Positions 1 to 10,636 of a stretch of DNA of 14,617 bases are shown here, in pieces (position 1 is the stretch's first letter; each line of letters begins with the position of its first letter). The notes under the pieces were generated by a model. It was not told where the DNA came from and made no database searches. It saw only the letters and a list, made by a program, of their open reading frames with translations. A program made the position numbers and the translations under genes. The stretch is from a virus, in UHGV virus genome UHGV-0060032; one strand, written 5' to 3'.

Positions 1-49
1 TTAATCACATATCGTGAATAATTAATTCATCTAACCACTGGAGGTTGAT

Positions 50-265
50 ATGAACAACATTGCAGAGCAGCGAAAAAAAATTGGGATTTCGCAAGCCGCT
101 CTGGCTTCTGCCATAGGCTGGGGGCAGTCGCGAATTGCCAATTATGAGCTTGATATCCGCACCCCTGGTCTGCCGGAAAGTCGCCTTATTGTCGAGGGCC
201 TGAACCGTCTCGGTTGCAATTGCTCCCTTGATGACGTTTTCCCACCAACTACCAGCGCAGCCTAA
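50..265 (+). CDS. Cro-like HTH (XRE-family) transcriptional regulator
   Basis: 71-aa ORF with GGAGG RBS at 40-44; helix-turn-helix-like segment IGISQAALASAIGWGQSRIANYE; sits immediately upstream of nutR and cII, the position of cro in lambdoid phages. Confidence 0.65.
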   Translation: MNNIAEQRKKIGISQAALASAIGWGQSRIANYELDIRTPGLPESRLIVEGLNRLGCNCSLDDVFPPTTSAA

Positions 266-273
266 GTAACACC

Positions 274-306
274 CGCTCTTATCACATCTAAGCCCTGAAA
301 AAGGGC
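274..306 (+). promoter_or_regulatory. nutR-like N-utilisation site: boxA CGCTCTTA (274-281) and boxB hairpin GCCCTGAAAAAGGGC (292-306)
   Basis: boxA matches the lambda boxA consensus and boxB matches lambda nutR boxB as I recall it; GCCCT/AGGGC is a perfect 5-bp inverted repeat with an A-rich loop, located between cro and cII. Confidence 0.75.
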
Positions 307-388
307 GATTCAAAACAACAAGTCTTAAAGGCTATGCGTGTCTGCACATTGGCCTATTTAACTATTTAACACTCTAGGAATTTAACAA

Positions 389-688
389 ATGGAAAACTCA
401 ATTAACCGCAACAAGGTCAATGCCCGTCGCATTGAGTCCTGGTTGCTTAACCGTATCGCTATGAAAGGTGGCAACAACGTAGCTAAAGAGATCGGCGTTG
501 ATAAGGCACAGATAACCCGCTGGAAAGAAACGTGGCTGCCGAAGATGGCAATGCTGCTTGCTGTTCTTGAATGGGGCGTCGTTGACGACGATATGGCTCG
601 ATTGGCACGACAAGTTGCTTCGATTCTCACCAATAAAAAACGCCCGGCGGCAACCGAGCGTTCTGAACAAATCCAGATGGAATTCTGA
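389..688 (+). CDS. cII: CII-like transcriptional activator
   Basis: 99-aa product; the stretch RIESWLLNRIAMKG...LLAVLEWGVVDDDMARLARQVASILTNKKRPAATERSEQIQMEF is near-identical to lambda CII as I recall it; position after cro/nutR. Confidence 0.85.
   Translation: MENSINRNKVNARRIESWLLNRIAMKGGNNVAKEIGVDKAQITRWKETWLPKMAMLLAVLEWGVVDDDMARLARQVASILTNKKRPAATERSEQIQMEF
398..411 (-). promoter_or_regulatory. PRE-like CII-binding -35 element (TTGC-N6-TTGA on minus strand)
   Basis: Reverse complement of 398-411 is TTGCGGTTAATTGA. In lambda the CII site TTGCN6TTGC of PRE lies antisense inside the first codons of cII, as it does here. Confidence 0.4.
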
Positions 689-720
689 GGTAATTACTGG
701 ATCAATCCACAGGAGTCATT

Positions 721-1590
721 ATGACAAATACAGCAAAAATACTCAACTTCGGCAGAGGTAACTTTGCCGAACAGGAGCTAAGAGTGGCTGATATCGATGA
801 TGGTTACACCAGATTCGCTAACGAGCTGCTGGAAGCTATCGCAAGTGCCGATTTAACCGCTCGCCAGTTGAAAGTTATGCTGGCCTACGTCCGGAAAACA
901 TATGGATTCAATAAGAAAACAGATCGAATAGCCGATGAGCAAATTGCTCAGTTAACAGGACTATCAAGGCAGAATGTTAACAAGGCTAAAAAAGAACTGA
1001 TTTCAATGAATTGCCTGTTTATGGATGGAAATCAAATCGGTGTAAACAGGGAGGTATCTGCGTGGCAATTCAGCAAGTGTCTCCAAGTTAGCAACTTTGT
1101 CTCGAAGTTAGAGACAAAAAATGTCTCCAAATTAGAGACACTCAATGTCTCGAAGTTAGAGACACTCAATGTCTCGAAGTTAGAGACACACAAAAGACAT
1201 TCTTTAAAGACAAAAGAAAATATTAATAAACCCCCTATATCCCCCAAAAAAATTTCTCAGAAGTTCGACCCGCTAGAAACAGAGTTGCCTGATTGGTTAT
1301 CGGCAGAAACATGGTTGTCGTGGGTTACCTATCGCAAGGAGATAGGTAAGTCGATCAAGTCTAAGCAAAGCGTCACTCAGGCTATCAACGTTCTAAGCAG
1401 AAGTCTGGAGAAGGGATATACACCTGAAGAAATTATAAACCAGAGCATCGCCAGTGGTTGGCAGGGGATTTTTGAACCCAAGACTCCAAAGGGGAAATCT
1501 CAACCGAGGCCGCAGCAGCGAGCTATGCAGGAAAACTTTGCCGCCAAAGATTACGGGCAAACTGAAATGCCTTCATGGGCGCAGGAGTGA
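721..1590 (+). CDS. Replication initiator, lambda O-like (iteron-binding N-terminal domain)
   Basis: N-terminus MTNTAKILNFGRGNFAEQE...DDGY...LKVMLAYVRKTYGFNK closely resembles lambda O N-terminal domain; the gene contains the iteron array; RBS AGGAG upstream. Confidence 0.8.
   Translation: MTNTAKILNFGRGNFAEQELRVADIDDGYTRFANELLEAIASADLTARQLKVMLAYVRKTYGFNKKTDRIADEQIAQLTGLSRQNVNKAKKELISMNCLFMDGNQIGVNREVSAWQFSKCLQVSNFVSKLETKNVSKLETLNVSKLETLNVSKLETHKRHSLKTKENINKPPISPKKISQKFDPLETELPDWLSAETWLSWVTYRKEIGKSIKSKQSVTQAINVLSRSLEKGYTPEEIINQSIASGWQGIFEPKTPKGKSQPRPQQRAMQENFAAKDYGQTEMPSWAQE
1078..1260 (+). repeat. Origin of replication: iteron array plus AT-rich tract inside the O-like gene
   Basis: Four copies of the palindromic 19-mer TGTCTC-N7-GAGACA at 1098, 1122, 1146 and 1170 (exact 24-bp spacing), a degenerate copy at 1078, then an A/T-rich stretch 1189-1260. 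This mirrors ori-lambda organisation. Confidence 0.8.
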
Positions 1591-1592
1591 AT

Positions 1593-2486
1593 ATGAATAC
1601 GACAAATGGTTACAATCTGGCACTGCAAAGGCAACTTGTAGACTCAAAAATCAATGACATTTCTGATCTGAAACAGAAACTTGAGTTTAGCAAAATTGGA
1701 TCAGTATCAGATGGAATGTCAGTTACCAGCACAGTGGAAGAGTGCGAGAAACACGGTAAATATACTTCCTATGAGAAATATCTGACCATCTCAGGAAAAA
1801 GAATTACTTCAAGTAAATCTGAGTGCCCACAGTGCCTTGAGGAGAAAATTCGTAAGAAAGAGATTGAACGTGAGCAGGCAGAACAAAGAGCAAGACAATC
1901 AAAAATTGAATATTTGTTGAATTCTCTCAATATTCCAGAGAGGTTCAAAAATTGCACTCTTCAGAATTATGAGCCTGTTAACGATGATGCAAAGCGAGTT
2001 CTTAAGGTATGCCAGGCATATGCCAGTAAGTGGCCTGAACGCCTTCAAAAAGGTGGCGGACTGGTCATGTGTGGTAAGCCTGGAACTGGAAAGAACCACC
2101 TTGCACTGGCTATCGCTAGGCACGCCATTATCGAGCATCAAAGCTCTGTGATATTTACCACTGCGTTGAAAATTGCCAGAGAGTACAAATCAACATGGTC
2201 TAAGGCCGCAACCAGAACTGAAGAAGAAGTCATTAGGCAATTTACGCATCCTGACTTGTTAATAATCGATGAGGTTGGCGTGCAGTTCGGCAGTGATGCT
2301 GAAAAGCTAATCATGTTCGAAATTATCAACACCAGATATGAATACATGAAGCCAACAATCCTGATTAGTAATCAGAGCAAAGATGAACTTTCGGCATTCA
2401 TTGGTGAGCGTGTTATTGACAGGATGAATGATGGCGGAGGGTGCACTCTTGCGTTTACATGGGATAGTTACAGGAGCAGATCGTGA
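1593..2486 (+). CDS. DnaC/IstB-like AAA+ helicase loader with N-terminal Cys-containing extension
   Basis: Walker A GKPGTGKNHLA and Walker B LLIIDEVG; CEKHG...CPQC motif near N-terminus; start at 1593 chosen for AGGAG RBS; occupies the lambda P position after O. Confidence 0.75.
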   Translation: MNTTNGYNLALQRQLVDSKINDISDLKQKLEFSKIGSVSDGMSVTSTVEECEKHGKYTSYEKYLTISGKRITSSKSECPQCLEEKIRKKEIEREQAEQRARQSKIEYLLNSLNIPERFKNCTLQNYEPVNDDAKRVLKVCQAYASKWPERLQKGGGLVMCGKPGTGKNHLALAIARHAIIEHQSSVIFTTALKIAREYKSTWSKAATRTEEEVIRQFTHPDLLIIDEVGVQFGSDAEKLIMFEIINTRYEYMKPTILISNQSKDELSAFIGERVIDRMNDGGGCTLAFTWDSYRSRS

Positions 2487-2773
2487 CTGGAAAAGAAATC
2501 ATCCTGGAATATCTGAAAACTCATGAACAATTCTCCCCACATGAATTAGCACTGATCACCGGAATACCAAATAACAGAATCGCTCAAGCAGCAAGGCATA
2601 TGGTGAAACAAGGACATTTGAGTGTTGTTGAGCGTAAGTGGAAGACGGTTATTTATGCAAAACGCAAAGTGAAGAAGGAGCCAATTAAAAGAAATCCAGA
2701 TGGTACGGGGTGGGGATGTGCAAATCCAATGACGGCGTTTATTAATAGGGCGCTTATGGAGGTAAGGCAATGA
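2483..2773 (+). CDS. Small hypothetical protein, possibly winged-helix DNA-binding
   Basis: 96-aa ORF with a GTG start overlapping the stop of the loader gene (translational coupling); basic C-terminus; no family recognised. Confidence 0.4.
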   Translation: MTGKEIILEYLKTHEQFSPHELALITGIPNNRIAQAARHMVKQGHLSVVERKWKTVIYAKRKVKKEPIKRNPDGTGWGCANPMTAFINRALMEVRQ

Positions 2774-2798
2774 CCATCTACATCACTGAGCTAATAAC

Positions 2799-2830
2799 AG
2801 GCCTGCTGGTAATCGCAGGCCTTTTTATTT
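2799..2830 (+). terminator. Rho-independent terminator-like hairpin
   Basis: AGGCCTGC (2799-2806), 8-nt loop, GCAGGCCT (2815-2822), followed by TTTTATTT. Confidence 0.65.
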
Positions 2831-2859
2831 GGGGGAGAGGGAATTGGAGGCTTTAAGAA

Positions 2860-3075
2860 ATGAGTACGATAGCTGAGCTTGTCAGGGCTAATTTTCGTGA
2901 AGAGTTGGTGCGTTGGTATCGGTATCGTTCATCGTCCAGTTTGCCGATTGATGAGTTGTATGAGCATTCACCTGCTGCACGACGCTATCCGCGTGACCGT
3001 GTTCTTCGACGGTTGTCCAAACTCAACAATGAGTTTCAGCGCAACAGAATTATTCGGAGTCTGGATTTAAAGTAA
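2860..3075 (+). CDS. Hypothetical protein (71 aa)
   Basis: ORF with GGAGG RBS 8-12 nt upstream of ATG; no recognisable family. Confidence 0.4.
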   Translation: MSTIAELVRANFREELVRWYRYRSSSSLPIDELYEHSPAARRYPRDRVLRRLSKLNNEFQRNRIIRSLDLK

Positions 3076-3085
3076 AGGAGTGAGC

Positions 3086-3292
3086 ATGACAAATCAGCAG
3101 CAAATAGAGTTCATCCTTGAGCAGATTCGAAAAATGCGAGAAAAGAACCAGCCAGACATGATGGAAATATGGAGACGCCAGCAGGAAGAATACCGCAAGC
3201 ATATTTTTGGTGAGAGAAAACAGGATGACTGGAGCCTATATGGCTATGGCACCAGGACAAATAAAAACGGATATAGCCTTTACACATATTGA
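3086..3292 (+). CDS. Hypothetical protein (68 aa)
   Basis: ATG at 3086 preceded by AAGGAG; charged, helical-looking product; no recognisable family. Confidence 0.4.
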   Translation: MTNQQQIEFILEQIRKMREKNQPDMMEIWRRQQEEYRKHIFGERKQDDWSLYGYGTRTNKNGYSLYTY

Positions 3293-3300
3293 GGAATTCC

Positions 3301-3711
3301 ATGAAACAGACAATTTTCCTCAGGAGTAAGCAACAACAGCAAACCGCAATCACCGCCATCCTCGCAACACCACTCGATAAAGACAAGCCAGTTACCATCC
3401 GCATTACTGACTACAAGCGCAACCTTGACCAGAACGCAAAATTTCACGCGATGCTGGCGGATATCGCAAGTCAGGTTCAATGGTGCGGCAAATGGTTAAA
3501 ACCAGAACAATGGAAGGTTTTGTTGATAAGCGGTCATGCAGTGGCAACAAAGCAGGAAGCTGATGTTTTGCCCGGCCTTGAAGGCGAATACGTCAACATT
3601 CGCGAAAGCAGCGCGCAGATGAGCGTGAAGCGTATGGCAAGTCTGATCGAGTACACAACAGCATGGGCTATTGGTCAGGGTGTCAGATTTACCGACAGGA
3701 GGTACGAATGA
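3301..3711 (+). CDS. ninB: NinB-like recombination protein
   Basis: The segment [24 protein letters not shown]...[12 protein letters not shown] resembles lambda NinB as I recall it; GAGGAA RBS; first gene of a nin-like cluster. Confidence 0.6.
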
Positions 3712-3884
3712 GACGACAGCGACGAAGTATCACCGACATAATCTGCGAAAACTGCAAATACCTTCCAACGAAACGCTCCAGAAATAAACGCAAGCCAATC
3801 CCAAAAGAATCTGACGTAAAAACCTTCAACTACACGGCTCACCTGTGGGATATCCGGTGGCTAAGGCATCGTGCGAGGAAATGA
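3708..3884 (+). CDS. ninE: NinE-like small protein
   Basis: 58-aa basic product [19 protein letters not shown]...; ATGA overlap with ninB stop; size and position match ninE. Name is from recall and synteny only. Confidence 0.5.
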
Positions 3885-3886
3885 CA

Positions 3887-4297
3887 ATGGATTATTCACA
3901 GTTAAGTGATTTTGAAATTAACAAGCGAGTATGTGAGGCTTTAGATATGGAGGAGCATTTCTTCATACCTGATGACGAAGCAGATTTCGATTCTGAGATC
4001 CCCACTGACGAAAGAGGTCCTATTTGGCAGACGCAAAAAAGGGATATTAATGGCTTCCGTTCTTCAAACGGAAATTGCTTCAATCCTTGCAATAATCCTG
4101 AATATGCGTGGCCAATTATCACTGAAAACAAAATCAGCATAATGTTTGATAGTACCGATACGAGATATGAAGGCGAATATCACGAGTGGTGTGATGCGAT
4201 TTCATCTTGTCAAAAGTTCGGAATTCAGTATCAGTCTAATCCACTCCGCGCCGCCATGATTGTCTTTCTCATGATGCAGGACGCCAATAATGCTTAG
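3887..4297 (+). CDS. Hypothetical protein in NinX-like position (136 aa, acidic, Cys-containing)
   Basis: ORF between ninE-like and ninF-like genes; start at 3887 chosen for GAGGAA spacing (3881 also possible). The NinX call is positional only. Confidence 0.4.
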   Translation: MDYSQLSDFEINKRVCEALDMEEHFFIPDDEADFDSEIPTDERGPIWQTQKRDINGFRSSNGNCFNPCNNPEYAWPIITENKISIMFDSTDTRYEGEYHEWCDAISSCQKFGIQYQSNPLRAAMIVFLMMQDANNA

Positions 4298-4466
4298 CCC
4301 ATCCCAATCCCTTCAATACCAGAAAGAAAGCGTCGAGCGGGCTTTAACGTGCGCTAACTGCGGTCAGAAGCTGCATGTGCTGGAAGTTCACGTGTGCTCC
4401 GATTGCTGCGCAGAGCTGATGAGCGATCCGAATAGCTCAATGTACGAGGAAGAAGACGATGAATGA
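4290..4466 (+). CDS. ninF: NinF-like small Cys-rich protein
   Basis: 58-aa ORF absent from the supplied track (under 60 aa); MLSPSQSLQYQKESVERALTCANCGQKLHVLEVHVCSDCCAELMSDPNSSMYEEEDDE; CxxC...CxxCC pattern; overlaps both neighbours. Confidence 0.5.
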   Translation: MLSPSQSLQYQKESVERALTCANCGQKLHVLEVHVCSDCCAELMSDPNSSMYEEEDDE

Positions 4467-5181
4467 GTTAATAAATGGCAATGCCATCAAAATGACAAGC
4501 ATTGAAATCGCTGAGTTGGTGGGAAGTCGTCATGACAAGGTGAAACAATCTATTGAACGACTGGCGGCTCGAGGTGTGATCCGAAATCCCCCAATGGTGG
4601 TTTTCGAAAAAATCAATAACTTAGGATTACTTCGTGGCGTAGAGGCTTACGTTTTTGAGGGCGAACAAGGTAAGCGAGACAGCATTATTGTCGTCGCTCA
4701 GTTGTCGCCGGAATTCACCGCTCGTCTTGTTGACCGTTGGCGAGAGCTTGAAGAAGCTGCGGTTAATATCCCCAAAACGCTACCAGAAGCGTTGCGCCTT
4801 GCTGCTGATCTTGCTGAGCAGAAAATGCAACTGGAAAACCAGCTCGCAATTGCCGCACCTAAAGTTGAGTTTGCCGATCGCGTTGGCGAGGCCAGCGGAA
4901 TTTTGATTGGAAACTTTGCAAAGGTTGTTGGTATTGGTCCAAACAAACTGTTTGCGTGGATGCGCGATCACAAAATCCTTATTGCTTCAGGTTCCCGGCG
5001 CAATGTGCCAATGCAGGAATATATGGAGCGCGGCTATTTCACAGTGAAAGAAACAGCGGTCAACACAAATCACGGAATACAGATATCGTTCACCACAAAA
5101 ATCACCGGGCGTGGTCAACAGTGGCTGACCAGAAAGCTGCTCGATAACGGAATGCTGAAAGTAACAGGGGAGGCTGCTTAA
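4459..5181 (+). CDS. Phage antirepressor-like protein (Rha/AntA-like N-terminal region, KilA-C/ANT-like C-terminal region)
   Basis: 240 aa; N-terminal SIEIAELVGSRHDKVKQSIERL resembles Rha/Ant N-domains; C-terminal half (APKVEFADRVGE...YFTVKET...) resembles KilA-C domains. Assigned by recall of family motifs. Confidence 0.6.
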   Translation: MNELINGNAIKMTSIEIAELVGSRHDKVKQSIERLAARGVIRNPPMVVFEKINNLGLLRGVEAYVFEGEQGKRDSIIVVAQLSPEFTARLVDRWRELEEAAVNIPKTLPEALRLAADLAEQKMQLENQLAIAAPKVEFADRVGEASGILIGNFAKVVGIGPNKLFAWMRDHKILIASGSRRNVPMQEYMERGYFTVKETAVNTNHGIQISFTTKITGRGQQWLTRKLLDNGMLKVTGEAA

Positions 5182-5471
5182 TGGCCAATCTACGCAAAGA
5201 AGCACGCGGCAGAGAATGTCAGGTACGTATTTACGGCGTATGCAATGGCAATCCTGAAACTACAGTTCTGGCACATTACCGGATGGCTGGAATTTGCGGA
5301 ACGGGAATGAAACCTGACGACCTGATCGGCGCATGGGCTTGTAGCGACTGCCACGCGGAGATCGACCGACGCACCCATAACCTCGACAACAAAGACGCCA
5401 GACTTTACCACCTCGAAGGCGTGATCAGGACGCAGGCGATACTGCTGAAGGAGGGGAAGATTAAACCATGA
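5181..5471 (+). CDS. YbcO-like DUF1364 protein (putative nuclease)
   Basis: 96 aa; MANLRKEARGRECQVRIYGVCNGNPETTVLAHYR...CSDCHAEIDRR resembles E. coli prophage YbcO; sits directly upstream of rusA as in DLP12-type prophages. Confidence 0.6.
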   Translation: MANLRKEARGRECQVRIYGVCNGNPETTVLAHYRMAGICGTGMKPDDLIGAWACSDCHAEIDRRTHNLDNKDARLYHLEGVIRTQAILLKEGKIKP

Positions 5472-5830
5472 ACGAATATCAGTTTGTGCTTCCATACCCG
5501 CCGTCGCTGAATACCTACTGGAGAAGACGGGGAAGCCAATACTACATCAGCGATAAAGGCCAGAAATACCGAAAAGACGTTCAGCAAATCATTCGCCAAC
5601 TCAAGTTAGACATTTTCACCAAATCACGACTCCGTATCAAAGTCATCGCAGACGTTCCAGATTCCCGCCGCCGCGACCTCGACAACATCCTGAAAGGTTT
5701 ACTCGACTCCCTTATCCACGCCGGATTTGCGGAAGACGACGAGCAATTCGATGACATTCGCGTAATTCGTGGTGTGAAAGTACCAGGCGGACGGCTTGGA
5801 ATAAAAATCACCGAACTGGAGAACGCATGA
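5468..5830 (+). CDS. rusA: Holliday junction resolvase RusA
   Basis: 120 aa; LPYPPSLNTYWRRRG...RRRDLDNILKGLLDSL...GGRLGIKITEL matches the RusA family including the acidic catalytic RRDLDN motif. Confidence 0.8.
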   Translation: MNEYQFVLPYPPSLNTYWRRRGSQYYISDKGQKYRKDVQQIIRQLKLDIFTKSRLRIKVIADVPDSRRRDLDNILKGLLDSLIHAGFAEDDEQFDDIRVIRGVKVPGGRLGIKITELENA

Positions 5831-6015
5831 ACGCCACAATTCAAACGATACCAGAGCTTCTTATCCAGACACGAGGCAATCAGACCGAAGTGGCGAGGAT
5901 GCTTTCCTGCGCAAGAGGAACAGTGCTCAAGTACAACCGAGACAGCAAAGGCGAGCGTCACGTAATAGTTAACGGCGTCCTGATGGTCAAACAAGGCAAG
6001 AGGGGAAGACGATGA
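5827..6015 (+). CDS. ninH: NinH-like small DNA-binding protein
   Basis: 62 aa; TIPELLIQTRGNQTEVARMLSCARGTVLKY resembles lambda NinH (Fis-like HTH) as I recall it; directly upstream of Q. Confidence 0.5.
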   Translation: MNATIQTIPELLIQTRGNQTEVARMLSCARGTVLKYNRDSKGERHVIVNGVLMVKQGKRGRR

Positions 6016-6530
6016 GCATAAGAGAACTAAACCTCACCAAAGAGCAGCACGAGTGGCTGAATGGCTGGCTTGAACTGTGGGGCGCATGGGTTTATTCAGG
6101 TCGTCTGGAAAAGCGCATGAGCAGCGTAATAGCGAAGTTCATGGAGAGCGTAGAGCCGGGAAGAATTATGACAAGGCCAATGTGTAATGATGATGATGGA
6201 ATGTTGATTTCTCAGGTCGTTGATTCCGTCATGTACATTGACAAGAAAGCCTTTGGCATCCTCCTCAGCTACTACGCTCATGGTTCATCTAAGCGAGCAA
6301 TTGCATCCTACTATCACGCGACTGCAAAGCCACGCAAGATGTGTGGACGCGGTGGCGAGGGATGGAGAAAACCTTCACTGGCAACCTGTAGAAACGAAAT
6401 TGACGATATCCTGAAAGCGTCATTATTTGTTTTGTACCAACCAATGCAAAATGCTTTCAAAATGCGTAAACGTGTTGAGAAAGTTAAGCATGTTGCTGTT
6501 AAAAACCTTGACATGCAATTAGCCATTTAG
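6012..6530 (+). CDS. Late-gene antiterminator Q (P22 gp23 / DLP12 QuuD-like family)
   Basis: 172 aa; WLELWGAWVYSG...RPMCNDDDGMLI resembles the Q-antiterminator family; a late-promoter-like element overlaps its 3' end. Confidence 0.65.
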   Translation: MSIRELNLTKEQHEWLNGWLELWGAWVYSGRLEKRMSSVIAKFMESVEPGRIMTRPMCNDDDGMLISQVVDSVMYIDKKAFGILLSYYAHGSSKRAIASYYHATAKPRKMCGRGGEGWRKPSLATCRNEIDDILKASLFVLYQPMQNAFKMRKRVEKVKHVAVKNLDMQLAI

Positions 6531-6537
6531 CCATAAT
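6508..6537 (+). promoter_or_regulatory. pR'-like late promoter
   Basis: -35 TTGACA (6508-6513), 18-bp spacer, -10 CATAAT (6532-6537), overlapping the end of the Q gene. Confidence 0.6.
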
Positions 6538-6593
6538 TAGAGGGTAAGCTGCCGTTAGTGACTCTTAAGTTGCAACGGTGGCTTTTTTTATTT

Positions 6594-6668
6594 GGGTCAG
6601 TCGTATAAAGGTCATTACGGAAGGCTGTTAACCTTCTTATCGTGGTTCGAGTCCACGCTGTCCCGCCA
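6594..6668 (+). tRNA. tRNA-Asn (anticodon GUU), phage-encoded
   Basis: Hand-folded cloverleaf, 75 nt: acceptor GGGTCAG/CTGTCCC (one U-U mismatch), U8, anticodon stem GAAGG/CCTTC with loop CUGUUAA, T-arm CGTGG-TTCGAGT-CCACG, discriminator G and encoded CCA. Confidence 0.6.
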
Positions 6669-6673
6669 AACAT

Positions 6674-6749
6674 GCTGGTTTAGCTCCAATGGTAGAGCGG
6701 TCGCCTTGTAAGTGAATAGGTAGCGGTTCAAATCCGTTAACCGGCACCA
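6674..6749 (+). tRNA. tRNA-Thr (anticodon UGU), phage-encoded
   Basis: Hand-folded cloverleaf, 76 nt: acceptor GCTGGTT/AACCGGC, D-arm GCTC-CAATGGTA-GAGC, anticodon loop CUUGUAA (stem has one G-A mismatch), T-arm AGCGG-TTCAAAT-CCGTT, discriminator A and CCA. Confidence 0.55.
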
Positions 6750-6805
6750 AAAACCCAGCCAGGGTATCTTCAGCCGCAGAGCTGACATTGCCACACCCTA
6801 ACATT

Positions 6806-6830
6806 CCCGCCTTGAGCGGGTTTTTTATTT
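6806..6830 (+). terminator. Rho-independent terminator (tR'-like), after the tRNAs and before the lysis genes
   Basis: CCCGC (6806-6810), loop CTTGA, GCGGG (6816-6820), then TTTTTTATTT. Confidence 0.75.
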
Positions 6831-6938
6831 CAGGCTCACGGGAATCAATCACTACGTGCTTTGTTGAAAATCCAGCCAGTGAAGCCTGATCCTTTTCATA
6901 CACACACAGCGCCATCCGAAAAATCGGAGGTGAGGCCT

Positions 6939-7262
6939 ATGAAAATGCCATACAAACAAGATTTCATCGCTGCGCTACTTGCCGCCAAGGAGCAGGGTAT
7001 TGGTGCAATGCTGGCTTTTATCATGGCGTATCTGCGTGGTCGCTATAACGGCGGCGCGGTAACAAAAACGCTAATTGATGCGCTGATGTGCGCGATGATT
7101 GCCTGGTTCGTTCGTGACCTTCTGGACTTTATCGGCCTGAGCAGCAACCTCGCCTACATAGCCAGCGTCTTTATTGGATACATCGGCACCGATTCGATCG
7201 GCAATCTTATTAAAAAACTTGCAGCAAAAAAGGCGGGAGTTGACGATGCAAACCAGTCCTGA
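6939..7262 (+). CDS. Class I holin, lambda S-like, with dual-start motif
   Basis: 107 aa from ATG 6939; begins [27 protein letters not shown]..., near-identical in pattern to lambda S including the Met-Lys-Met dual start (second ATG at 6945). Confidence 0.85.
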
Positions 7263-7695
7263 CGGAATTGCTCTGATAAAAAAATTTGAAGGTTGTCGGC
7301 TGACTGCTTACCCCGACCCCGGAACGGGAGATGCGCCGTGGACCATCGGCTATGGCTGGACCCATCCGGTTGACGGAAAGCCAGTAAAGCGCGGTATGAC
7401 TATCGACCAGCAAACCGCTGACAGGCTTCTGAAAACAGGGCTTGTTGGTTATGAGAATGACGTGCTGAAAGTTGTCAGGGTGAAGCTGACACAAGGCCAG
7501 TTCGACGCACTGGTGTCGTTCGCTTACAACGTTGGGTCGCGTGCTCTTTCCACATCTACACTGCTGAAAAAGCTGAATGCTGGCGATATAAAAGGCGCGG
7601 CAGATGAATTTCTGCGCTGGAATAAATCAGGCGGAAAGGTGATGCCGGGGCTCACGAATCGCCGCAAGGCAGAGCGAGCTCTGTTCCTGTCATGA
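7246..7695 (+). CDS. Endolysin, lysozyme (glycoside hydrolase family 24, P22 gp19-like)
   Basis: 149 aa from ATG 7246; [33 protein letters not shown] and C-terminal [11 protein letters not shown] typical of T4/P22-type lysozymes; overlaps holin end. Confidence 0.85.
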
Positions 7696-8159
7696 TTAGC
7701 GCACTGGTTAAGCGTTACTGGCTGCAGTTGCTGGTGCTGGCGTTAATCGGCGCACTGGCTTTCTTCGTGAACCACTACCGCGACAACGCCATCACTTACA
7801 GAGACCAGCGCGATAAGGCCACTGAGAAACTCCTCCTGGCGACCGCCACCATTAAAGACATGCAGACCCGCCAGCGTGATGTCGCTGCACTGGATGCCAA
7901 ATACACCGGAGAACTGGCTGATGCGAAAGAAACCATTGAGCGTCTGCATAGCGATGTCATTGCTGGCCGTAAGCGGCTGCAAGTCGCCGCCACCTGTGCA
8001 AAGTCAACGACCGGAGCCAGCGGCATGGGCGATGGAGAAAGCCCAAGACTTACAGCAGATGCTGAACTCAATTATTACCGTCTCCGAAGTGGAATCGACA
8101 AGATAACCGCGCAGGTTAACTACCTGCAGGAGTACATCAGGACGCAATGCCTGAAATAA
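7692..8159 (+). CDS. Rz-like i-spanin
   Basis: 155 aa; N-terminal transmembrane segment [17 protein letters not shown] then charged coiled-coil-like region; ATGA overlap with lysozyme stop; contains Rz1 in the +1 frame. Confidence 0.8.
7921..8106 (+). CDS. Rz1-like o-spanin (outer-membrane lipoprotein) embedded within Rz
   Basis: 61 aa from ATG 7921: [20 protein letters not shown] (signal peptide plus lipobox Cys) followed by proline-rich [13 protein letters not shown]; fully nested in Rz. Confidence 0.75.
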
Positions 8160-8192
8160 TTTTTTTTGCAAATCACAAAGTCCATTTAATGA

Positions 8193-8216
8193 GCCTCGCG
8201 ATGCGGGGCTTTTTTA
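8193..8216 (+). terminator. Rho-independent terminator-like hairpin after the lysis cassette
   Basis: GCCTCGC (8193-8199), loop GAT, GCGGGGC (8203-8209, one G-U pair), followed by TTTTTT. Confidence 0.6.
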
Positions 8217-8359
8217 CATCTGAATTTCACAGCGCATCTCACGCGCATATTACCACTCAGAACCTTTCAGGATGACCCTTGAGGATACCGGCTGGCTGTC
8301 GGAGCATCTGAGGGCCGGATTTCCTGTGAGACAAGGTTCATCACTAAAAGGTAAATCCG

Positions 8360-8911
8360 ATGAATGATATTTCTATCGAATATCTGAAAGAAGCACTGGA
8401 ATACGCACCAGATACTGGTGTTATCCGTTGGAAGCAGCGACCAAAAATTCATTTTAAGACCGAAAATTCTTGGCGGGCGACCAATGCTAATTTTGCTGGA
8501 AAAGTAGCAGGCGCACGTGATAGCGATGGATATTTGCGTATCGGGATATGCGGCCGGTTATATAGATCTCATCGTGTAGCCTGGGCGTTACATTACGGCT
8601 ACTGGCCTGATAATGAGATTGATCACATTTCAGGCGATAGGAGTGATAACCGCATAGACAACTTGCGATCAGTAACTTCGGCAGCCAATAGCAAAAATTT
8701 GCGCCTTTACTCCACAAATAAAACCGGTATCCCAGGAGTAGGTTGGTATAAAGCGCGGGGAAAGTGGAGAGCAAAGATAAACGTCTCTGGGAAGGTGAAG
8801 CATATTGGTTACTTCGATGATTTCCGTGAAGCGGTGAAAGCAAGAAAGGCTGCCGAGATGCAGTTGCAATATCACAAAAATCACGGAACCAGAGACAGGC
8901 TCACTTTCTAA
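8360..8911 (+). CDS. HNH endonuclease with C-terminal AP2-like DNA-binding region
   Basis: 183 aa; HNH core HRVAWALHYGYWPDNEIDHISGDRSDNRIDNLR; C-terminal GIPGVGWYKARGKWRAKINVSGKVKHIGYFDDFREA resembles AP2 domains of phage endonucleases. Confidence 0.75.
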   Translation: MNDISIEYLKEALEYAPDTGVIRWKQRPKIHFKTENSWRATNANFAGKVAGARDSDGYLRIGICGRLYRSHRVAWALHYGYWPDNEIDHISGDRSDNRIDNLRSVTSAANSKNLRLYSTNKTGIPGVGWYKARGKWRAKINVSGKVKHIGYFDDFREAVKARKAAEMQLQYHKNHGTRDRLTF

Positions 8912-8925
8912 AAGGTAAAGACGCT

Positions 8926-9450
8926 ATGAATAATCATTCAGTTATTCCATCCTTCGACTTCCGAGAAATGGTGCAAGCCAAAAACGGAGAGGTCGTTACC
9001 ACATCCAGAAAAATTGCCAAGTACTTCGGCAAGCGACACGGTGATGTTCTCAGGAAAATCGAGCAGGTTAAGGCTGATTGCTCGCGTGAGTTTAGCCAAC
9101 GCAATTTTGCGTCGGCTGATTATATCGATGAGCAGGGCAAGGTTCGCCCGATGTACAGCCTGACGAAAGATGGCTGGATCATGGTTGTGATGGGGTTCAC
9201 CGGGAAAGCTGCTGCGGCAATCAAGGAGAGCTATATCGCAGCATTCAACTGGATGGCAGAGCAGCTAAACCGGCGCATGGCGATGGGTGAAGAATTGCAG
9301 CATCGCTACGCCATCAAAGAAACGCGCTCAAAGCTGAAAGGCACGTTCGGAAGCCGTTTGATGAACGAGCGGAAGAAAGAGAAGCGCGTCCTGGAGCTCG
9401 AACATGAGCACATCATGCAGGTAACGCAGCCGGAATTACTTATTGGCTGA
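8926..9450 (+). CDS. Phage regulatory protein Rha family
   Basis: 174 aa; VVTTSRKIAKYFGKRHGDVLRKIEQV...MYSLTKDGWIMVVMGF matches the Rha-domain pattern as I recall it. Confidence 0.65.
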   Translation: MNNHSVIPSFDFREMVQAKNGEVVTTSRKIAKYFGKRHGDVLRKIEQVKADCSREFSQRNFASADYIDEQGKVRPMYSLTKDGWIMVVMGFTGKAAAAIKESYIAAFNWMAEQLNRRMAMGEELQHRYAIKETRSKLKGTFGSRLMNERKKEKRVLELEHEHIMQVTQPELLIG

Positions 9451-9510
9451 TCGCGGCATTACAGAAGCCCTTCATTGAGGGGCTTCGATAATGGAGCACT
9501 GGAATTATTC

Positions 9511-10131
9511 ATGAACAGACCACACCCACCAGCGCATTTTACGATGCCACCTGACCCGAAGCCGTACATCAGCATTATGCCCGCTAATGACGTTGGCGAG
9601 TGGCTGAATCAGCACATCCTGAGCGATGAGGGTGACCTCTACAACCATGACCACCAGCATTTGCTTGAAGCGGATCTGTGCTTTCTCTGGGCATCGAACG
9701 CTTTCGAGAAGAAAGGGCGTTCCGTGCTGGGGCAGGCGGAAGAAGTGGCAATGCGGGCCGGAGGCTGGCAGAAAGCGCGGATGGAGCAGCAGATGTATGA
9801 ATGGTTCGGCAGGGTGCCGCAGTTCATCATCACGCTGGCCGCCGATTACTGCTCGCAATGTTCCGATCTGGAATTCTGCGCGCTGATAGAGCACGAGCTT
9901 TATCACATCTGCCAAGCGACAGATGAATTTGGTGCGCCGAAGTTCACGCAGGAAGGGCAGCCAAAGCTGAAGCTGCGCGGCCATGACGTGGAAGAGTTTG
10001 TGGGCGTGGTTCGCCGTTACGGTGCGAGCCGGGACGTGCAGGAAATGATTGATGCGGCGAATCAGCCAGCGGAGGTTGCTCATCTCGATATTGCCAGAGC
10101 GTGCGGGACGTGCATGCTGCGACTGGCTTAA
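9511..10131 (+). CDS. Hypothetical HExxH-motif protein (putative zinc metallopeptidase-like)
   Basis: 206 aa from ATG 9511 (TTG 9475 or ATG 9544 also possible); HExxH motif in ALIEHELYHI preceded by CSQCSDLEFC; GC-rich codon usage like the packaging genes. Confidence 0.5.
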   Translation: MNRPHPPAHFTMPPDPKPYISIMPANDVGEWLNQHILSDEGDLYNHDHQHLLEADLCFLWASNAFEKKGRSVLGQAEEVAMRAGGWQKARMEQQMYEWFGRVPQFIITLAADYCSQCSDLEFCALIEHELYHICQATDEFGAPKFTQEGQPKLKLRGHDVEEFVGVVRRYGASRDVQEMIDAANQPAEVAHLDIARACGTCMLRLA

Positions 10132-10162
10132 ATACTGGACTGTATAAGACGAATGGTGATTT

Positions 10163-10636
10163 ATGGCTGCATTAAAACCTGATGTGAAAGCCTTCATCAT
10201 TCAGTCGCTTGCGTGCTATGACACGCCATCGCAGGTGGTCGAGGCTGTCCAAAAAGAATTCGGGATCAGGATCACCCGCCAGCAGGCTGAATCTCACGAC
10301 CCCACGAAGGCCAGCGGTAAGACGCTCGCCAAAAAGTGGATCGAGATGTTCCACGCGACGCGCGAACGGTTCCTGACCGAAACCAGCGACATTCCGATAG
10401 CGAACAAATCCTATCGCCTCCGCGTGCTTGACCGCATGGCAACCAAAACCGAGGGGATGAAAAACTTCTCCCTGACGGCGCAGCTTATCGAACAGGCCGC
10501 GAAAGAGGTTGGCGACGCTTACACCAATAAGCTGAAGGTTGAGAGCACTGGCAAGGATGGCGGCCCGATCAAGACCGAGACGACCAACCTCACCGCAGAT
10601 CAGGCCGCAGAGATTTACCGCAAGATGATGGGGTGA
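10163..10636 (+). CDS. Terminase small subunit (DUF2280-like)
   Basis: 157 aa; [35 protein letters not shown] resembles the DUF2280 putative small-terminase family as I recall it; directly upstream of and overlapping TerL. Confidence 0.6.

Follow-up and report, generated by a model that had tools for sequence, protein, structure and literature searches.

The 14-bp element at positions 398..411 of the window, by which we mean the whole 14,617-nt stretch of UHGV virus genome UHGV-0060032 that was analysed, most likely constitutes the CII site for leftward transcription of the cI repressor gene, and thus the PRE of a lambdoid phage with P22-like relatives; on the strength of sequence comparison we would put the probability of this reading at roughly 0.85. 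Very probably it would represent an ordinary, textbook-type lysogeny promoter, situated in a cII variant so far unstudied. CII binding, CII dependence and the leftward start are what we infer from the anatomy of the element, its positional homology, its conservation and its genetic context. The predicted promoter and the gene in which it lies comprise the following features:

398..411, minus strand: candidate CII-binding direct repeat (distal TTGC 411..408, spacer 407..402, proximal TTGA 401..398)
379..387, minus strand: weak -10 element, aligned with those of lambda and P22 (TG 387..386, one base, hexamer TAAATT 384..379)
370..374, minus strand: predicted leftward start at about 372-373, a minus-strand purine, placed from lambda geometry
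389..688, plus strand: cII, 99 aa (phrog_191, E=3e-37)

The plus strand of 398..411 is tcaattaaccgcaa, and a re-reading of the minus strand as TTGC-GGTTAA-TTGA agrees with the original prediction of an element one mismatch removed from TTGC-N6-TTGC (7/8 bases, the mismatch being the fourth base of the promoter-proximal repeat). The repeat covers cII codons 4-8, or +10..+23 from the ATG, with its 6-bp spacer (GGTTAA, 407..402) sitting over the -35 position. It had also been claimed that the element occupies the same relative location as its lambda counterpart, and this is precisely the case: the lambda pRE site (38369..38382, ATG at 38360) has an identical +10..+23 offset, as does the annotated C1 site of P22 (32045..32058, c1 ATG at 32036), which carries the RefSeq label 'P22 C1 protein; activation of P RE'. 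When TTGC-N6-TTGC is sought with at most one mismatch, 24 matches are found in the window, where shuffled sequences predict 23.05; the bare motif therefore occurs at chance frequency, and the case for a PRE rests on position and comparison.

The leftward strands of the lambda, P22 and window promoters align gap-free, and from the repeat to the -10 hexamer they read:

lambda: TTGC, gtttgt, TTGC, 13 nt acgaaccatatgt, -10 AAGTAT
P22: TTGC, gagtgc, TTGT, 13 nt gagttccatatgt, -10 GAACAT
window: TTGC, ggttaa, TTGA, 13 nt gttttccatttgt, -10 TAAATT

A weak -10 element to the left of the repeat, which the original prediction had suggested looking for, is indeed present, as the hexamer TAAATT starts 13 nt past the proximal repeat, with TGT preceding it, at the spacing seen in lambda and P22. 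One caveat is that this hexamer falls in the A/T-rich stretch that separates the Shine-Dalgarno sequence from the ATG. At the -35 position GGTTAA shares 1/6 bases with TTGACA, and a sigma-70 scan of positions 1..800 returned no leftward promoter at the repeat, while an oop-like promoter was picked up in the same scan. A weak -10 combined with the lack of a usable -35 is the picture expected of an activator-dependent promoter. The predicted start was placed by lambda geometry, with the hexamer at -12..-7 and the lambda pRE start at 38343.

It is conceivable that the leftward promoter is mostly CII-independent by virtue of an extended -10 (TGnTAAATT), or that the TTGA repeat weakens CII binding such that establishment proceeds by another route; we regard this as improbable. 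The TG at -15/-14 together with TAAATT (4/6) could give basal activity, and some relatives possess TGT-GATAAT (5/6), but the same TGT motif occurs in lambda, where pRE is CII-dependent, and in P22, where C1 dependence is annotated. A promoter of this kind would, moreover, have no need of the repeat, which 44 distinct sequences of the window allele retain without exception. As for weakened binding, one of the two repeats does depart from the lambda consensus, but the base in question varies in nature, the annotated P22 PRE having a T there.

The window corresponds to the early-right and late-control region of a lambdoid phage, and the features that frame the putative PRE within it are these:

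50..265, plus strand: cro-like gene, encoding an HTH regulator
275..307, plus strand: nutR-like site of the lambda type (boxA CGCTCTTA at 275..282, boxB GCCCTGAAAAAGGGC at 293..307)
746..718, minus strand: oop-like promoter TTGAGT-17-CATAAT, from the sigma-70 scan
664..637, minus strand: oop-like intrinsic terminator, downstream of the oop-like promoter
6012..6530: Q-like antiterminator gene, 172 aa, host gene of an antisense PaQ-like site
6594..6668: tRNA-Asn
6674..6749: tRNA-Thr

The boxB at 293..307 matches the sequence of the lambda nutR boxB. On sister contigs a PF11438 (N36) product is found at the place expected of the N antiterminator. The oop-like unit (637..746, minus strand) is antisense to the 3' end of cII, an arrangement shared with lambda and P22, and cII is followed by an O-like gene, a DnaC-like replication gene, nin-region genes, an Ant-like gene and RusA. 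The two tRNAs and the lysis genes lie 3' of the Q-like gene, and Rfam returned the tRNAs only, with no RNA family at the CII-type repeat at 398..411. A strong sigma-70-like promoter (TTGACA-18-CATAAT, 6508..6537), which is probably pR', overlaps the end of the Q-like gene, and a terminator-like hairpin is located at 6806..6820, ahead of the holin gene.

Conservation was assessed with 80 IMG/VR loci, the CII proteins of which share 67-92% identity with that of the window, together with lambda and a Salmonella phage, which yielded 63 distinct minus-strand sequences from loci whose CII proteins are 67-100% identical. TTKC-N6-TTGN is found at the same place in 63/63, the invariant bases being positions 1, 2 and 4 of the distal tetramer (T, T and C) and the TTG of the proximal one. 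A hexamer of the form nAnnnT follows at a spacing of 13 nt in every one of the 63, as 12 different variants, while the other spacings tested (6-21 nt) reach at most 16%. In four sequences an extra codon follows the ATG (MEIN...), and here the hexamer tracks the repeat and not the ATG. These relatives are non-independent samples, and as such the invariance is due in part to shared ancestry.

A synonymous test was conducted on 40 distinct window-type alleles, which were chosen solely on identity in the helix-turn-helix region with the 5' end disregarded. Synonymous heterozygosity is 0.029 over codons 2-11 vs 0.282 over codons 12-99, approximately 10 times lower, and codons 2-11 show the lowest value of 88 ten-codon windows; it is the first 11 codons of cII that overlap the predicted PRE. 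Codon 4 is always NCA (TCA, ACA or GCA), which means that the proximal repeat has its second T fixed at a synonymous site, in contrast to the adjacent codons of the spacer, which vary. Translation initiation imposes a constraint of its own on gene starts and could explain part of this synonymous freeze; given that constraint together with shared ancestry, the comparative argument is strong and yet not proof.

Taken further, the same consideration would attribute the conservation to signals in cII translation or its mRNA (ribosome access, codon choice, RNA structure), with no promoter present and CII perhaps not acting here, which we consider very improbable. First codons are commonly constrained, the low-diversity codons 2-11 are the translation-initiation region, and in lambda the transcription and translation signals overlap at the cII start. 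Such signals do not, however, predict two TTG tetramers exactly 10 bp apart, an opposite-strand nAnnnT spaced from the tetramers rather than from the ATG, or a second such arrangement inside Q, and they are in any case compatible with a promoter, as the two constraints are not exclusive. Least probable of all is that the 14-mer does nothing but encode Ser-Ile-Asn-Arg-Asn, its resemblance to a CII site being due to chance or to a functionless ancestral relic: although the one-mismatch motif is no commoner in the window than chance allows (24 vs 23.05) and Arg7 and Asn8 are conserved at the protein level in all alleles, the same register recurs in two annotated PRE sites (lambda and P22), synonymous positions are frozen in both tetramers while spacer codons vary freely, and the -10-like hexamer remains at 13 nt despite the shift of the ATG. 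A conserved PRE, as was originally proposed, would account for the register, the -10, the 63/63 relatives and the frozen synonymous sites, and the site in Q and the leftward cI gene described below agree with it as well.

The product of cII is, by sequence, a close CII homologue and the presumptive cognate activator of this PRE. It matches the lambda CII structures in PDB (1xwr, E=2.4e-41; 1zs4, E=3.3e-31), and over residues 53-99, the C-terminal half, a single residue differs from lambda in the alignment, whereas the N-terminal third and the helix-turn-helix have diverged. What is, in our assignment, the recognition helix has the sequence DKAQITRWKE in the window as compared to DKSQISRWKR in lambda. 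In the collections searched, the window cII allele is found in Salmonella P22-like phages and in prophages of Citrobacter and other Enterobacteriaceae. A megablast of the cII 5' region against the phage collection gave only two matching records, both of them Salmonella Lederbergvirus (P22-like) genomes, and the annotation of neither has a promoter or binding-site feature beneath the match. The exact 23-mer is present in 3 species-representative genomes, and no complete E. coli genome contains the leftmost 490 bases of the window together with the remainder.

The fourth base of the proximal repeat, at which the window departs from TTGC, occurs as A (44), C (10) or T (9) among the 63 distinct sequences; lambda has C, the annotated P22 PRE has T and the window has A, and sequences of the P22-c1 type have TTGT in 24/24 distinct cases. 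The recognition sequence of P22 C1 is given as TTGC-N6-TTGC/T in the part of PMC10345575 that cites Ho et al. 1992, and the TTGA of the window lies strictly outside these published C/T alternatives. Considering that the same base is T in P22, and that near-consensus sites are found elsewhere, an A at this position amounts to a small extension of known natural variation.

A larger departure is seen in a sister clade, namely the CII alleles with MDKSGITRW as their recognition-helix motif ('KSG'; L052-L069 and L255-L271), for which the PRE reads TTTC-N6-TTGT in 40/44 loci, two deviations from TTGC-N6-TTGC, while CII alleles with KAQ, KSQ, KSS or KSN have TTGC as the distal repeat. We considered a switch in CII specificity as the source of these deviations and rejected it. 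In genomes with KSG and window-type cII, the minus strand at the Q position carries sites that read TTGC-GAGnnn-TTGC and then TAAYAT (within 10-kb flanks), and elsewhere TTTC-type sites show no enrichment (8 vs approximately 5.8 expected). As the anti-Q sites are canonical and the TTTC type is not enriched, the deviations at PRE look tolerated or tuned, and do not point to a new specificity. It is a rather doubtful proposition that PRE has been tuned clade by clade through a fixed fourth base in the proximal repeat (A in the window clade, T in the P22 type, C in the lambda type, with the KSG clade having TTTC in the distal repeat in addition), the mismatch then not being neutral, although the anti-Q sites do keep perfect TTGC repeats in the genomes with window-type and KSG alleles. 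Were it correct, PRE would need a higher CII concentration than PaQ, such that the lysogeny decision would be ordered in steps, and the CII tetramer would read its two half-sites unequally.

The arrangement inside the Q-like gene of the window is the following:

6305..6337, minus strand: second candidate CII-type promoter, PaQ-like (TTGC-GTGGCT-TTGC, 13 nt, TAGGAT)

Apart from its repeat (6337..6324, minus strand), the window has no exact TTGC-N6-TTGC. Across 58 distinct Q sequences the 14-mer does not vary, and the interval 6295..6346 contains 1 variable site vs approximately 6 expected; in homologous Q genes of related genomes TACGAT or TAAGAT occurs at the same position in place of TAGGAT. 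For the composite pattern TTGC-N6-TTGN-N13-nAnnnT the window yields 3 matches vs 0.18 expected, a number reached in 1/200 shuffles, and since the pattern was partly derived from the site at 398..411, only the other two matches are independent. When the same pattern is applied to P22, 3/4 matches are the annotated C1 promoters PRE, Pa23 and PaI. The third match in the window (3568..3600, plus strand: TTGC-CCGGCC-TTGA, 13 nt, AACATT) lies on the sense strand of a NinB-like ORF (3289..3711) and has no known counterpart; as a CII promoter it is probably a chance occurrence, and we have treated it as such.

The 172-aa product at the position of the Q-like gene on contig L166 (8847..19111 of which is 100% identical to window 1..10265) belongs to PF06530 (Phage_antitermQ), while 207-aa products at the Q position on sister contigs belong to PF03589, which we take to be the lambda Q family. 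The Q-like gene of the window thus appears to be of a different family from lambda Q. The element at 6337..6305 is similar to lambda paQ and P22 Pa23 in that all are CII-type sites (TTGC-N6-TTGC, 13 nt, TAnnAT) located antisense in the middle of an antiterminator gene, but its host gene is of another Q family than that of lambda, and the site is not homologous to TTGCGAGCACTTGC of lambda paQ. With regard to a PI-type site, no convincing recurrent candidate was found in the left flanks of the relatives using a -10 filter that lambda's own pI fails; the int/xis region lies outside both the window and L166. A single observation from outside the window is the element at L166 4183..4215 (plus strand: TTGC-GATGAT-TTGC, 13 nt, TATCAT), which is oriented rightward in the early-left operon, antisense to small leftward genes, and is reminiscent of P22 PaI.

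On the minus strand cro (50..265) lies downstream of the predicted PRE, and the window ends just left of it. Contigs with an identical Cro protein have a leftward LexA-like cI gene (HTH and Peptidase_S24) directly left of cro, and as such a PRE transcript would cross cro antisense and enter cI. It is reasonable to postulate the following course of events. Early rightward transcription would give rise to CII, a tetramer of which would bind TTGC (411..408) and TTGA (401..398), one helical turn apart and flanking the -35 position of the leftward promoter, there to recruit or stabilise RNA polymerase at a promoter with no usable -35 and a weak -10 (TGT-TAAATT, 387..379). Transcription would then proceed leftward from about 372, antisense through cro and into a cI gene just left of the window, and the resulting burst of repressor along with lower Cro expression would favour lysogeny. 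The antisense promoter in Q (6337..6305) would respond to this CII as well, with the consequence that late gene expression would be delayed.

L166, one of the contigs with the identical Cro, is the sole contig that extends the exact sequence of the window leftward, and its cI frame is interrupted (8560..8800): with L167 and L169 as the reference for an intact helix-turn-helix region, approximately 33 nt of that region are replaced by approximately 54 nt containing in-frame stops. Either a genuine clear-type mutation or an artefact of assembly could lie behind the interruption, and if it is real the PRE of this particular phage may drive a defective repressor.

With respect to known systems, the window resembles lambda pRE in being leftward and antisense within cII codons 4-8, in its tetramer repeat with a 10-bp period, in having the -10 placed 13 nt past the repeat after TGT, in its poor -35, in its homologous activator, and in the order of cro and then cI downstream. 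It differs from lambda in the proximal repeat (TTGA vs TTGC), the spacer (GGTTAA vs GTTTGT) and the -10 (TAAATT vs AAGTAT), and the immunity region (cro) is unrelated. In common with the P22 PRE it has the +10..+23 placement (of the C1 site in c1, in that phage), a proximal fourth base that is off TTGC and the TGT-hexamer geometry, whereas the deviating base is A and not T, P22 C1 is a different allele of 92 aa, and the P22 -10 is GAACAT. Near-consensus PRE and PaQ sites have been predicted from sequence in epsilon34 (PMC2629481) and phi24B (PMC4651098). These sites read TTGC-N6-TTGC/T or differ by a single-nucleotide change, and they occupy PRE and PaQ positions like those of the window, in the company of different cII alleles.

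The placement of the PRE, its -10 and the PaQ-like promoter means that a cII allele which had not been studied can now be annotated with confidence. The core conserved across CII alleles is TTKC-N6-TTG with nAnnnT 13 nt downstream, the last proximal base being free (A, C or T), and for finding CII-dependent promoters this pattern is more specific than the textbook TTGC-N6-TTGC. The PRE of the window would be a homologue of a textbook element, and it leaves the understanding of the lysis-lysogeny switch unchanged.

Among the related contigs, a mosaic junction is found right at the cII/c1 start codon in L168 (around 10290..10380) and also in L186 and L200. In L168 a coding sequence of the P22-c1 type (TTGC-GAGTAC-TTGT) is joined to lambda-type sequence upstream, including the lambda -10 (TGT-AAGTAT, ttccttagataacaattgattgaat), and with the junction so placed, PRE exchanges its activator site and its -10 as separate modules.
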